From Spirochaetia bacterium (GTDB taxonomy: Bacteria; Spirochaetota; Spirochaetia; UBA9216), in assembly GCA_965140585.1 (NCBI GenBank), contig OZ223265.1, positions 128,001 to 192,000 on the forward strand: a stretch of 64,000 nt of DNA, written 5' to 3'. Both the position numbers and the translations under genes were made by a program. This document shows, piece by piece, positions 2,077 through 53,474 of the stretch (positions are counted from its first letter, which is position 1; each line of letters starts with the position of its first letter). The notes beneath the pieces were generated by a model. That model saw only the letters and a program-made list of their open reading frames with translations, did no database searches and had not been told where the DNA came from.

Positions 2077-2286
2077 TTATTTTTCAGTCTTAATACCGTA
2101 TTTTCTGTTGAATCTTTCAACACGGCCGGCGGTATCAACAAGCTTCTGCTTTCCAGTAAAGAAAGGATGGCACTGAGAACAAATTTCCACTTCAATATCT
2201 TTAACTGTGGCTCTTGTGTTGATCACATTACCGCATGCACATTTAATCTCTGTCATTTCATAGTTAGGATGAATGTCTTTTTTCAT
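2077..2286 (-). CDS. rpmE: 50S ribosomal protein L31 (Zn-binding type)
   Basis: MKKDIHPNY...CACG...[10 protein letters not shown]; GGAGG upstream supports the start at 2286. Confidence 0.97.
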
Positions 2287-5577: not shown

Positions 5578-7209
5578 TTATTGATGATTGTCAAATCTAT
5601 TTTGCAGAGCATACCGTCTAATTCGGAATACCGTACCTGCAAGAAGTGCAGTTATAGTTAGAATCACAGTCAGAACTGCAAACCAATCGCCCCAGGCCAG
5701 ATAGAGGGTGTTAAGCTCATCAAAAACAGGGACCGAGGCTATCATATAATTCTCCTCGAAAGGTCTGATGATATTGGTTATTTCCCCGTCCGGTTCAATT
5801 GTACATGTAATCCCGGCATTGGTTCCACGCACGACAGTTCTACGGGTCTCAACAGCCCTGAAAACGGCCATAGCCATATGCTGCATTTCTGCAGGAATAG
5901 AACCCGACCACGAATCATTAGTCAGATTGACTATCATCTGAGCACCGTTATTAACAAACTCTCTTGAAAGGTATCCGAAGACATCCTCAAAACAGATAGG
6001 TGTACTGAATTTAACTCCGGCAGCATCGAAAACAGTATATTCCGTTCCTTTCTTCCAGAAATGAAAATCATGGTCCCTCAAGGCCTGATAAAATCTGGGC
6101 ATCTGTTTCTGATATGGAAAATTCTCAGTAAAGGGCACTAAATGAGTTTTTCTGTATGTAGCCTGAAGATCTCCGTCATAAAGAAGAACTGCGTTATAAT
6201 CAACCCTCTTCAAATCACCATTTTCATCGGGTTCCAACTGCCCGTCATCGTTGCCTATGACGTAAGGAATATCCTGTGTAGCAAAAAATTCCTTGAGCTC
6301 TTTTACAAGTCTGTACTTTTCAGGTTCTGTTCGATATCGGCTATGGTAATCAATCCCCGGAACAAAAGCAGTTTCAGACCAGACCATCATCTCAATTGAA
6401 GGATCTTCCGCAAGAGCCTTCTTACTGAGTTCTATCATCTTGTTCATATTGTTTTCGTAGGTTTTAACACCGCCCTTCCAGGTGTCTGCATTATGCTGCA
6501 CAAAACCAAGTTTTATCTGACGGGAGTCTGAAAAATCTTTCGGAGTAAAAAGCCCGAAAATCAGGACAGCAATAAAAAGTGCTGCGTATGCATAGATAAA
6601 AACTCGCTGTTTTTTAACATTACTTACAAATTCACCGAAACCGTCTCTCAAAGCATTTCCCAGAAATACTGAAGGCAGAACAACCATAAGGGAAACAAAC
6701 CAAAAACCGGTTATTGATGAAATCTGTATAAACGGTCTGAATAGATACTGTGAATATCCGAGATTTCCATAGGGATATCCGAGAAATCCAAGTGTTCTGA
6801 AATATTCATATGCAAGCCAGACGCCGGCCTGAACAATAAAACCCCATTTTGGAAATAATGTACCTGCAAGCTTAAGAACCGGAAACAGAACGAGAAAATA
6901 TGCGGCATATATGACCGGAACTATGACTATTGCAAGCGGATGGAAGGTGGACAGCCAGTAATTGAACAGGACATAGCAGATATACCCGTAAAATATTCCG
7001 TAAAAAACGGTGCGCATCCACCCTGCATTATGAATAACTATAAATATGGGGGTTAAACAAATAAAAGCAACAGGGAAAAACCCCCATTCATTAAGAAGGT
7101 TGGGAAACGATAATGCGAAAAGAACCGCAGAAAATACTAAAAGCCCGATCTCCTTCAGAAGAACCGGTATCGAGAGCTTTTTTTCTGCCGTCAATGTCAA
7201 ATCATTCAT
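5578..7209 (-). CDS. lnt: Apolipoprotein N-acyltransferase
   Basis: Multi-TM N-terminus; WSETA, YRKTHLVPFTE and ICFE nitrilase-fold triad motifs. Confidence 0.95.
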   Translation of the reverse strand: MNDLTLTAEKKLSIPVLLKEIGLLVFSAVLFALSFPNLLNEWGFFPVAFICLTPIFIVIHNAGWMRTVFYGIFYGYICYVLFNYWLSTFHPLAIVIVPVIYAAYFLVLFPVLKLAGTLFPKWGFIVQAGVWLAYEYFRTLGFLGYPYGNLGYSQYLFRPFIQISSITGFWFVSLMVVLPSVFLGNALRDGFGEFVSNVKKQRVFIYAYAALFIAVLIFGLFTPKDFSDSRQIKLGFVQHNADTWKGGVKTYENNMNKMIELSKKALAEDPSIEMMVWSETAFVPGIDYHSRYRTEPEKYRLVKELKEFFATQDIPYVIGNDDGQLEPDENGDLKRVDYNAVLLYDGDLQATYRKTHLVPFTENFPYQKQMPRFYQALRDHDFHFWKKGTEYTVFDAAGVKFSTPICFEDVFGYLSREFVNNGAQMIVNLTNDSWSGSIPAEMQHMAMAVFRAVETRRTVVRGTNAGITCTIEPDGEITNIIRPFEENYMIASVPVFDELNTLYLAWGDWFAVLTVILTITALLAGTVFRIRRYALQNRFDNHQ

Positions 7210-7544: not shown

Positions 7545-7814
7545 TTATTCCGCAGCGATTGAATTCAGAAGCTTATGCATTCTGGATTTCTTTCTTGCAA
7601 CCATATTCTTATGGTAAATACCCTTTCCTGCAGCAGTATCCATGAGCTTTGTCATCTCAAGAAATTTTGCTTCTGCTGCCGGTTTATCACCTGATTTTAC
7701 TGCAAGAATGAAGTTTTTTGTAACAGTTCTTACGGTGCTTTTAGCAACCCTGTTTTTCATTCTTCTTTTTTCACTTTGTCTATAGCGTTTTGCCGCTGAA
7801 TCTTTTCCTGGCAA
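7545..7814 (-). CDS. rpsT: 30S ribosomal protein S20
   Basis: SAAKRYRQSEKRR...KGIYHKNMVARKKSR. Confidence 0.95.
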   Translation of the reverse strand: MPGKDSAAKRYRQSEKRRMKNRVAKSTVRTVTKNFILAVKSGDKPAAEAKFLEMTKLMDTAAGKGIYHKNMVARKKSRMHKLLNSIAAE

Positions 7815-7881: not shown

Positions 7882-7932
7882 GTATATATCTTTGATTATA
7901 CTAAGCGGATATCTGCTTAAAAACACGATAAT

Positions 7933-7971
7933 AAAATAAAAAGGCTGTCATTCAGTATAATGAAGACAGCC
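7933..7971 (-). terminator. Intrinsic terminator after the small Zn-ribbon ORF
   Basis: GGCTGTC...GACAGCC stem followed by TTTTTATTTT on the minus strand. Confidence 0.7.
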
Positions 7972-7995
7972 CCGGCTAAATACAGTTAAAAGTGA

Positions 7996-8166
7996 TTATT
8001 TGAAGTCGCTGGGTCTTCTTTCTCTTCTGCTGCATTTTTCACATACTGCGACATTTTTGAGTTTACCATTCTGGAAAACTGCTCTCATCTTAACATCTCC
8101 ACCACATGGACATGTGTGTTTATGTGTACCAGAGCCAACACGCGCATTCTTACTGACCTGTGCCAT
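7996..8166 (-). CDS. Small basic Zn-ribbon protein (56 aa), absent from the ORF track
   Basis: Manual translation MAQVSKNARVGSGTHKHTCPCGGDVKMRAVFQNGKLKNVAVCEKCSRRERRPSDFK; TAAGGAG SD; downstream terminator. Confidence 0.85.
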   Translation of the reverse strand: MAQVSKNARVGSGTHKHTCPCGGDVKMRAVFQNGKLKNVAVCEKCSRRERRPSDFK

Positions 8167-8232
8167 TTGATACTCCTTATGTAATTTTATGCCTGTTCCG
8201 AAGCTTTAATCTAACAAAAAACTTTATGAAAG

Positions 8233-9093
8233 TCAATCTTCAAGACTGCCTGTAAATTCCCATGGACCGTTTTCTGCTTTTCTGGCAAATTTATCTGCCG
8301 GAACTTCAGCTTTTCGTCCGTCATCACCATATAATGTTATTTTCATTGACTGAATATTCACTTCTGTCACCTTAAAAACTGTTTTACCAATTATAATTTT
8401 GTTTCCTTCAGATGGAAGCTTTCTTTTTTCTTCTTTATAAAAATCATATTCATATGACAGACAGCATAAAAGCCTTCCGCAAGGGCCGGAGATTTTCATT
8501 GAATTAAGCGAAAGATTCTGCTCTTTAGCCATTTTAATAGATACAGACTGAAGCCTGTCGGTAATATTATGACAGCAGTACTGCCTTCCGCAAACAGCTA
8601 CTCCACCAAGAACCCTGGACTCATCCCTCACACCAATCTGTCGAAGCTCTATCCGCATCTTGAATATTGAAACAAGATCTTTTACAAGCTCTCTAAAATC
8701 AACACGGGCATCAGCTGTAAAAAAGAACAGAATCTTGGATTCCTCAGGAAGATAGTGCGCAGAGACAAGCTTCATATCAAGGCTATGCGCTAAAACCTTT
8801 TCACGGCATATCTTAACAGCCTCTTTTTCCTTGGCCAGATTGGCCTCATACTGTGACATGTCATCTTCAGTAGCTATCCTGATAAAGTTCTGAAATTCAC
8901 CCTCATGCTTCTCTTCGGGTCTGCATTTCAGCTGCCCCATCACTTTGGCAATATCTTTGCCGTAACGGCTGCTAATAACTGAAAAACTACCGTTTTCCAG
9001 TTCCTGCCCCACCTCACAAAGATGAGTCTCGCTTGAATGCAGCATTTTAAATCTATAAATATGTTTAACAGCTGTTGAACTGTTACCTTCCAT
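8233..9093 (-). CDS. ricT: PSP1/RicT (YaaT) family Fe-S protein
   Basis: RVDFRELVKDL, RIELRQIGVRDE, CGRQYCC and CGRLLCCL motifs. Confidence 0.92.
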   Translation of the reverse strand: MEGNSSTAVKHIYRFKMLHSSETHLCEVGQELENGSFSVISSRYGKDIAKVMGQLKCRPEEKHEGEFQNFIRIATEDDMSQYEANLAKEKEAVKICREKVLAHSLDMKLVSAHYLPEESKILFFFTADARVDFRELVKDLVSIFKMRIELRQIGVRDESRVLGGVAVCGRQYCCHNITDRLQSVSIKMAKEQNLSLNSMKISGPCGRLLCCLSYEYDFYKEEKRKLPSEGNKIIIGKTVFKVTEVNIQSMKITLYGDDGRKAEVPADKFARKAENGPWEFTGSLED

Positions 9094-52154: not shown

Positions 52155-52514
52155 CTAGATAGTTACTCCGGCTTTTCTGACACCTTCAGCAATGGCTTTC
52201 ACCTTGCCGTGATATAAAAATCCGTTTCTGTCAAAAACAACCGTAGAAATATTTTTTTCTTTAAGACGCTCTCCAAGAAGTACACCGAGCTTTTCCGCCC
52301 CTTCTACTGTGGAAGCAATCGCCTTATTGTCTTTTTCCATATTATTAGCATAAGCGATAGTAACACCGCTCATGTCATCGATAACCTGTGCATATAAGTG
52401 CCTGTTACTCTTAAAAACACTCAAACGAGGTCTTTCAGGAGTACCACTAACTGTTTTTCTAACGTGTTTCTTTCTCCGAACTCTTCGGTTAGCCTTTTGT
52501 ATTAGTTTCTTCAT
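52155..52514 (-). CDS. rplR: 50S ribosomal protein L18
   Basis: RPRLSVFKSN, VFDRNGFLYHGKV. Confidence 0.97.
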   Translation of the reverse strand: MKKLIQKANRRVRRKKHVRKTVSGTPERPRLSVFKSNRHLYAQVIDDMSGVTIAYANNMEKDNKAIASTVEGAEKLGVLLGERLKEKNISTVVFDRNGFLYHGKVKAIAEGVRKAGVTI

Positions 52515-52523
52515 TTTAGTACC

Positions 52524-53060
52524 CTATTTAATACCAGATTTTCCGACTTTTCTTCTGATATTCTCGTTATCGTATCTTATTCCTTTACCCTTATACGGCT
52601 CAGGAGGTCTCAGTCCTCTGATTTCAGCACTTATCTGACCAACGCGCTGTTTATCGATACCTGATACAGTTACCTTTGTACCTTCAACACTGATATTGAT
52701 TCCCTCTTCAATATAGAAATCAATCGGCTGTGAATAACCAAGGCTGAGTGTAAGGATATCCTTGTTTACTTCAGCACGGTAACCAACGCCGTTAATAATA
52801 AGTGTTTTTGAAAAACCGGCTGAAACTCCGGTAACCATATTGCTTATAAGTGAACGATATAAACCATGGTAAGAATGAGCGCTTTTTGTGTCGGATTTGG
52901 CCGTAACAACTACGGAATTATCTTCAACCTTAATCTCAACTTCAGGTTTATAATCCTGTTCAAGTTTTCCCTTCGGTCCTTCCACGGTGATAAGTTCTTC
53001 TGAAACAGAAACCTTTACGCCCTGCGGAATTGCTACCGGTAATTTTCCAATTCGAGACAT
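52524..53060 (-). CDS. rplF: 50S ribosomal protein L6
   Basis: [17 protein letters not shown]. Confidence 0.98.
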
Positions 53061-53075
53061 CTCGCTACCCCTATC

Positions 53076-53474
53076 CTACCAAACTGAGCAAATAACTTCA
53101 CCGCCGACTTTCTTTTCAGCAGCCTTCCTGCCGGTAGTAACACCGGTTGAAGTAGATACAATCAGAGTTCCGTATCCGTTATACACTCTGGGCATTTTTT
53201 TATAACCTGTATAGATTCTTCTTCCAGGCTTTGAAATCTTTGTAATACCATGAATTATTGGTTCATCATCATTTACATATTTCAGAAAAATTCTGATGAA
53301 GTTAATTCCATCTATTGTCGTTTTCTTAAAGTTTTTAACGTAGCCTTCATTCTTAAGTATCTTAACTATTTCAAGCTTCAACTTTGAAGTAGGTATATCA
53401 ACTCTGTCAAATCTTGCGTTGTTTGCATTTCGAATTTTAGTTAACATATCAGCTACAGGATCTGAAACTGCCAT
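53076..53474 (-). CDS. rpsH: 30S ribosomal protein S8
   Basis: [21 protein letters not shown]. Confidence 0.98.

Follow-up and report, generated by a model that had tools for sequence, protein, structure and literature searches.

A 56-residue protein encoded beside rpsT in a Spirochaetia genome is a probable four-cysteine form of the Borrelia ribosomal protein bL38

What is the product of a gene of 171 nucleotides that lies between ricT and rpsT in a spirochaete? The question is raised by a stretch of 64,000 nucleotides from a Spirochaetia bacterium (contig OZ223265.1, positions 128,001 to 192,000, called the window here), whose listing of open reading frames (ORFs) holds a frame of 56 residues with an ATG start at 7996-8166 on the minus strand. 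The original prediction, made from the letters alone, had seen in it a spirochete ribosomal protein, possibly bL38-like, or else a metal-binding partner of RicT. bL38 is among the newest bacterial ribosomal proteins, known from the Bacteroidia since 2020 and from a single spirochaete, Borrelia burgdorferi, since 2023. We consider it very probable that the ORF is the ortholog of B. burgdorferi bL38 (BB0162, UniProt O51184), a protein of the 50S subunit, here as a variant with four cysteines, which probably bind zinc. For the orthology we rely on homology over the full length, reciprocal matches between single-copy genes, agreement of the predicted fold, the conservation of the protein within the class, and its linkage to rpsT.

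When the single protein was compared with the sequences of solved structures, the only significant match was bL38 of B. burgdorferi (PDB 8FMW/8FN2, chain Ai; E value of 3.4e-4), with residues 18 to 55 of the ORF aligned to chain positions 8 to 45 of the 46 in 8fmw_Ai. Seventeen close homologs (59 to 100% identity, 56 to 60 residues), all of the four-cysteine type and with 21 invariant columns that include the four cysteines, were used to build profile A1. This profile, which has no Borrelia-type sequence inside, found 8fmw_Ai at an E value of 3.6e-8 (36.8 bits), with bL31 as the runner-up at 0.14. A broader profile, A2, aligned 44 of the 46 residues at an E value of 8e-16, a less independent test than A1 because A2 contains cysteine-poor members. 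In the reverse direction, the Borrelia-type protein L036 matched only this ORF in the whole genome of the window (E value of 1e-6, 41% identity over residues 1 to 54). L036 is encoded in a small genome of family f5, which we infer to be the Borreliaceae, and its aligned part is that of PDB chain 8FMW Ai save for K/R exchanges. The genome of the window (98.5% complete) held one match each for the window protein and for profile A1, and the Borrelia-type genomes held one bL38 match each, at about 160 kb.

The window protein and B. burgdorferi bL38 are thus full-length homologs of nearly the same size (56 and 55 residues), each encoded once in its genome. They have in common the N-terminal motif MAxxSKNA, the hairpin GG-x-[IV]-x-M-K...F-x-x-G-K, and the C terminus R-[RK]-P-x-D-[FL]. 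An AlphaFold2 model based on the alignment of the 17 homologs (mean pLDDT of 75.9) shows strands at residues 24 to 32 and 35 to 42, a short extended piece, and a helical turn at 52 to 55. This topology agrees with the hairpin, small third strand, and short helix of Borrelia bL38 given in the accessible text of its structural description (PMC10618245). Foldseek against the PDB ranked 8fmw_Ai first (probability of 1.00, target-normalised TM of 0.73, 46 of 46 residues, 37% identity, E value of 0.011), followed by a second match with an E value of 1.1. A comparison with Borrelia bL38 in sequence and structure had been suggested in the original prediction; with E values running from 3.4e-4 to 8e-16, a sole significant structure match that is reciprocal and single-copy, and a predicted fold that superposes at this TM, it strengthens the bL38-like reading considerably.

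Where the protein would sit on the ribosome can be anticipated from its Borrelia counterpart. According to the accessible part of PMC10618245, cryo-electron microscopy (cryo-EM) and mass spectrometry place bL38 in the Borrelia 50S subunit beside uL6, where it touches helices H95 (the sarcin-ricin loop) and H97, and residues K34, K36, R49, K50, and R52 form a spine that contacts 23S rRNA. Our alignment, with an offset of one residue, equates these with K35, K37, R50, R51, and S53, so that four of the five basic residues are kept; in the A1 alignment, R50 is invariant and R51 is conserved in at least 90%. By analogy with the Borrelia structure, the window protein would lie on the 50S subunit beside uL6 and would bind H95 and H97 of the 23S rRNA through its β-hairpin (residues 24 to 42), the short third strand, and the C-terminal helical turn. 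Ribosome binding is in this sense predicted from sequence likeness. The protein may also stabilise uL6 and aid its entry into the assembling 50S subunit; this is the weakest step, drawn by analogy from bL38 of Flavobacterium johnsoniae, which acts in uL6 incorporation according to the accessible part of PMC11851116.

The most evident difference between the two proteins lies in their cysteines. The CxC...CxxC pattern claimed for the window protein is indeed there (C19, C21, C42, and C45) and is invariant in 17 of the 17 close homologs, whereas Borrelia bL38 has S, W, C, and S at the same positions. In the AlphaFold2 model, C19 and C21 stand just before strand 1, and C42 and C45 where strand 2 ends or just beyond, a layout around the hairpin that suggests a two-knuckle zinc ribbon. 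The four cysteines would probably hold one Zn2+ and so link the hairpin with the N-terminal segment. Among 95 near-full-length sequences, the pattern of Cys and His was CCCC in 74, HCCC in 9, S-W-C-[ST] in 4, and another in 8. The first knuckle is CxC or CxxC depending on the lineage. Histidine at the first site and the switching between CxC and CxxC are consistent with metal ligation, rather than disulfides, as the constraint. That the metal is zinc is assumed from the example of other ribosomal zinc ribbons; it may also be iron. In the Borrelia-type form, the tryptophan presumably fills the metal site.

A search for homologs across the Spirochaetota had likewise been proposed in the original prediction, and its outcome supports a conserved family. 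Of 401 sampled genomes of the phylum (match threshold of E ≤ 0.01), 78 matched, all of them from the class to which the genome of the window belongs. One genome of that class, G225, had no match in this sample, and the 322 further unmatched genomes, 19 of which were listed, were labelled as of the same phylum only. Five genomes of other classes, searched with the broader profile, gave a best E value of 0.07. Within the class, sampled with another 401 genomes, the protein was matched in 368, including 291 of the 306 high-quality genomes. In family f95 (genus g204), three complete genomes of 4.6 to 7.0 Mb (G635, G525, and G545) gave a best E value of 0.03 with the broad profile, and bL38 has been either lost or much diverged there.

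A scan of 1.84 billion cluster representatives returned 141 proteins at a threshold of E ≤ 1e-3, and 56 of these had E ≤ 1e-10. All source names that bear an organism were spirochaete (10 protein names and 8 records of metagenome-assembled genomes [MAGs]), and the named carriers, MAGs together with one isolate, include Spirochaetaceae, Sphaerochaetaceae, and Spirochaeta lutea. Where public names are given, family members are called "hypothetical protein." The window protein itself, scanned with Pfam and NCBIfam, matched no curated family and gave only sub-threshold zinc-ribbon noise, the highest NCBIfam scores being 17.7 bits for a rubrerythrin-like domain (E value of 0.0022, cut-off of 32) and 15.6 bits for bL31 (cut-off of 70). 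The same scan of 90 of the 141 family representatives also gave sub-threshold zinc-ribbon noise only. Dozens of members (within P0033-P0155) are divergent metagenomic sequences of 35 to 55% identity, with motifs such as CKCGGEIKM...CxxCG...ARKPKDL; they blend features of the four-cysteine and cysteine-poor proteins and carry no taxonomic label, and a cluster look-up for 10 proteins returned no names of organisms. One pattern scan of species-representative genomes did not find these divergent metagenomic four-cysteine forms. The pattern scan with alignment A4 gave 8 loci, all of them cysteine-poor genes of Spirochaetaceae or Spirochaetales MAGs. Two additional A4 matches, both partial, in a Flavobacteriales MAG and in a PVC group MAG were discarded as spurious. 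A PVC group MAG encodes a protein of 645 residues (L060, 2215-4152 on the plus strand) with repeated CKKCG/CKCGGEI/CKRCG knuckles, a chance pattern match unrelated to bL38.

To describe the two forms, we used 46 distinct bL38 genes from 45 genomes, leaving out L047, which is the same gene as L014. The four-cysteine form (31 genes) is marked by CxCGG, or CxxCGG in one genus, followed by CxxC. The cysteine-poor, Borrelia-type form (15 genes) has S-[RK]-W-GG followed by C-x-x-[ST], so that only the third cysteine is kept. In a maximum-likelihood tree, a single branch (100/100 support) parted the 15 cysteine-poor genes from the four-cysteine genes, although this tree, being unrooted and built from 56 columns, gives no direction of change between the forms. 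A collection at 90% identity held 116 further matches, 89 cysteine-poor and 27 four-cysteine, an excess that reflects the density of sampling and not diversity; among the diverse representatives of the family, the four-cysteine form is the commoner type. These results go beyond the original prediction, in that we read the Borrelia protein as a cysteine-poor derivative of a family in which the four-cysteine type is commoner and which is confined, as sampled, to one class.

The forms also differ in their surroundings. rpsT lies within 1.5 kb of 25 of the 31 four-cysteine loci (downstream on the same strand in 20, divergent in 5), usually with hup and lnt after it, and near none of the 15 cysteine-poor loci. 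The window gene is linked to rpsT-hup-lnt in this way, whereas the Borrelia-type gene stands alone between unrelated convergent and divergent genes, its neighbours being an alanine racemase, two ORFs without a Pfam match at E ≤ 1e-5, and an Na/Ca exchanger. In seven of eight further cysteine-poor loci from MAGs, lnt lay at most 3 kb from bL38, which looks like a remnant of the four-cysteine neighbourhood.

Could the four-cysteine proteins then be bL38 homologs that act mainly off the ribosome, for instance by regulating or autoregulating the rpsT region as RNA-binding proteins that depend on zinc, or by storing zinc, with a ribosome binding that is weak or conditional? The long and fully supported branch between the forms and the difference in rpsT linkage (25/31 against 0/15) would fit such a role. 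So would two observations that weigh against a plain ribosomal assignment, namely, that the fifth rRNA contact position is not conserved (R52 in Borrelia, S53 in the window protein) and that some genomes of the class seem to be without bL38. Against it, the gene is single copy, so that no other gene could supply bL38, four contact residues and the whole predicted fold are kept, and the strong conservation throughout the class is in keeping with a structural part in the ribosome. Nor is there a cysteine-poor paralog like those of the zinc-regulated ribosomal protein pairs. We consider a mainly off-ribosome role improbable and retain the assignment to the 50S subunit.

The matter of paralogs was pursued in its own right. 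No genome examined pairs a four-cysteine with a cysteine-poor bL38 copy. The only genome with two copies, G341 (family f2), has two full-length four-cysteine genes, L046 on contig C12 and L014/L047 on C4, one of which adjoins rpsT-hup and the other lies elsewhere. A pairing of C+ and C- paralogs of the Zur type was accordingly rejected. The idea that cysteine-poor bL38 follows cysteine-poor bL31 as a form of zinc economy was contradicted as well, albeit by few cases: G030 combines a four-cysteine bL38 with a cysteine-free bL31, and G371 a cysteine-poor bL38 with a four-cysteine bL31. Longer, cysteine-free bL31 proteins were seen in three genomes of the class (L122 in G465, L123 in G030, and L124 in G470).

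The neighbourhood bears equally on the second proposal of the original prediction, a metal-binding partner of RicT. Such a protein would be a small accessory of the RicAFT iron-sulfur complex of RNA maturation and not ribosomal. The ORF begins 66 nucleotides 3' of ricT, in the same orientation, and has four cysteines, RicT itself belongs to a cysteine-rich Fe-S protein family (NF041131), and the sub-threshold likeness to a rubrerythrin-like metal domain noted above could be cited in its favour. However, ricT is found upstream of only 5 of the 31 four-cysteine loci and of none of the 15 cysteine-poor ones, far fewer than the loci with rpsT adjacent; the ORF has a promoter-like site before it and a terminator after it; and the Borrelia ortholog is a structurally resolved component of the 50S subunit. 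The RicT proposal is not supported by these comparisons, and we regard it as very improbable beside orthology to bL38.

That a protein is made from this frame at all might be questioned, given its shortness and the ORF of equal length on the opposite strand at 8000-8170 (plus). This second frame, almost an exact mirror of the bL38 ORF, is a hydrophobic shadow and no gene. A chance ORF or untranslated shadow frame is refuted by conservation, since the frame is open and full length in 368 of the 401 class genomes; the 21 invariant columns among 17 homologs, the strong Shine-Dalgarno site, and the significant similarity to a protein seen by cryo-EM and mass spectrometry speak against it too, leaving it a negligible probability. 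At 7996-8166 there is a real gene, with transcription signals of its own.

The details of the locus reported in the original prediction held when reread. The 56-residue peptide quoted there is the exact translation of the ORF, and the Shine-Dalgarno sequence TAAGGAG is read on the minus strand at 8179-8173, 6 nucleotides before the ATG (8166-8164). A candidate σ70-like promoter (TTGACT-17-TAGATT with a TG extension; 8208-8236, minus strand) overlaps the stop codon of ricT; it is weak evidence for a bL38 promoter, as 4 promoter-like sites were found in the region and 5.3 were expected from shuffles. The terminator claimed for the gene was present between bL38 and rpsT (7930-7973, minus strand) as a 13-bp hairpin with one bulge and a run of U. 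The hairpin (7973-7941) has a folding energy of -16.8 kcal/mol (z of -3.41, with 0 of 200 shuffles as stable) and is followed by UUUUUAUUUUAUU; a simple terminator scan misses it because of the 1-nucleotide bulge. Both claimed neighbours are on the same strand, with family matches above the cut-offs: rpsT (bS20; 7545-7814, minus strand) downstream, by PF01649 and TIGR00029 (88 bits, cut-off of 33), and ricT (PSP1/RicT-YaaT family; 8233-9093, minus strand) upstream, by NF041131 (264 bits, cut-off of 70). From upstream to downstream, the order on this strand is a bactofilin gene, a DUF327 gene, ricT, the bL38 ORF, rpsT, and an HU-family gene. Next on this strand is a 543-residue ORF at 5578-7209, presumably lnt (apolipoprotein N-acyltransferase).

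The name bL38 is shared with a protein of the Bacteroidia (rpmL, Fjoh_4981; DUF4295/PF14128), and the relation between the two has to be considered. The Bacteroidia protein is also basic, about 50 to 57 residues long, and built around a β-hairpin core, and in the accessible parts of PMC7797042, PMC10618245, and PMC11851116 it is assigned to the same part of the 50S subunit, beside uL6, H95, and H97. Common ancestry with the spirochaete protein has been argued through a Rhodothermus intermediate (PMC11851116, 2025, as far as its text is accessible). In our searches, PF14128 (27-bit cut-off) had no match to the window protein at E ≤ 1, none in the genome of the window at E ≤ 0.1, none among 90 representatives of the bL38 family at E ≤ 0.05, and none above the cut-off in 201 genomes of the phylum, with Bacteroides thetaiotaomicron positive as a control. 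DUF4295 genes collected from 29 of 61 genomes on the Bacteroidota side, sampled by phylum, amounted to 28 distinct sequences, and none of the 28 contains cysteine. Aligned by hhalign with these sequences, A1 and A2 reached probabilities of 0.1 to 0.3%, and a genome-wide search with the spirochaete profile A5 left the DUF4295 gene unrecovered in five of five carrier genomes. Gene order differs too, as the DUF4295 gene follows rpmB-rpmG and the order in the window is ricT-bL38-rpsT-hup-lnt.

Four divergent DUF4295 proteins of 54 to 60 residues (L084, L085, L086, and L089) begin with MAK(K)VSKNQRT, similar to MAxxSKNAR of the spirochaetes, and the Rhodothermus-like bridge forms of which the accessible text of PMC11851116 speaks may be these proteins. 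The N-terminal motif of three to four of these divergent members gave only about 10 bits in hmmsearch, in a gap-free alignment that is not significant. Homology of spirochaete bL38 to DUF4295 was, in view of the hhalign probabilities and the failed recovery, rejected as not demonstrable, not as disproved.

Throughout the searches, the recurrent runner-up behind bL38 was bL31 (E value of 0.009 in NCBIfam and, as given above, 0.14 in the PDB profile search). The N-terminal zinc ribbon of bL31 (PF01197) has CxCG...CxxC with nearly equal spacing around a β-hairpin, as in the window protein, and both bL31 and bL38 exist in cysteine-rich and cysteine-poor versions. By hhalign against 26 spirochaete bL31 sequences, the probability was 54% (P of 1.3e-4), over 28 zinc-ribbon columns only. 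The window protein differs from bL31 in having neither the IHP start nor the C-terminal half with HPFYTG...RF..RY, and every score is sub-threshold. The statement of the original prediction that the protein is not L31 stands, given that the protein scores 15.6 bits with NF000612 (cut-off of 70) and that a genuine four-cysteine bL31 gene lies elsewhere in the window (rpmE; about 2095-2286, minus strand; PF01197 at 1.3e-31), about 6 kb from bL38. In many four-cysteine genomes, rpmE is found 4 to 9 kb from bL38 (for example, G474, G462, G469, G476, G571, G512, G464, G471, and G145). Because matches of cysteine motifs inflate profile scores, convergence of bL31 and bL38 is as likely as common descent, and we treat the kinship as a lead and not as a finding.

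Taken jointly, these comparisons allow a history that we put forward only tentatively and think rather unlikely as a whole. bL38 would have begun as a zinc ribbon, possibly a duplicate of the N-terminal ribbon of bL31, unrelated to DUF4295. The two mini-proteins would have been recruited independently to the uL6/H95/H97 site, and the Borrelia type would derive from a single loss of the metal site, with a tryptophan-packed core and exit from the rpsT neighbourhood.

The presumed partner on the ribosome, uL6, is also encoded in the window, outside the bL38 locus, and is given here as context only (rplF; 52524-53060, minus strand; ORF with a PF00347 match). The segment at 52155-53474 (minus strand) is part of the main ribosomal protein cluster; uL18 (52155-52514) and uS8 (53076-53474) were named by position, and only uL6 is confirmed by its family.

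We found no account of a four-cysteine bL38 in spirochaetes in the literature covered by our search, which comprised the searchable parts of the papers. With the same scope, the four-cysteine form, the wide occurrence of the bL38 family within the class, the split into two forms, and the linkage to rpsT appear to be undescribed. Six of the 120 matches listed, four-cysteine members all (P0158, P0160, P0161, P0166, P0179, and P0183), carry the precomputed label PF27425.1, and a Pfam model for part of the family may thus exist already.

For the family, the results mean that the Borrelia protein is a cysteine-poor offshoot of one present in most of a spirochaete class. A four-cysteine form without a detectable link to DUF4295 also matters for the question of a common origin of the two bL38 proteins. 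bL31, bL33, bL36, and uS14 are ribosomal proteins with cysteine-rich and cysteine-poor versions, a short list to which bL38 would be added. Annotators gain a name for a gene now given as "hypothetical protein" or not called. For the organisms, the assignment predicts an extra zinc site beside the GTPase-associated centre of Treponema-type ribosomes.

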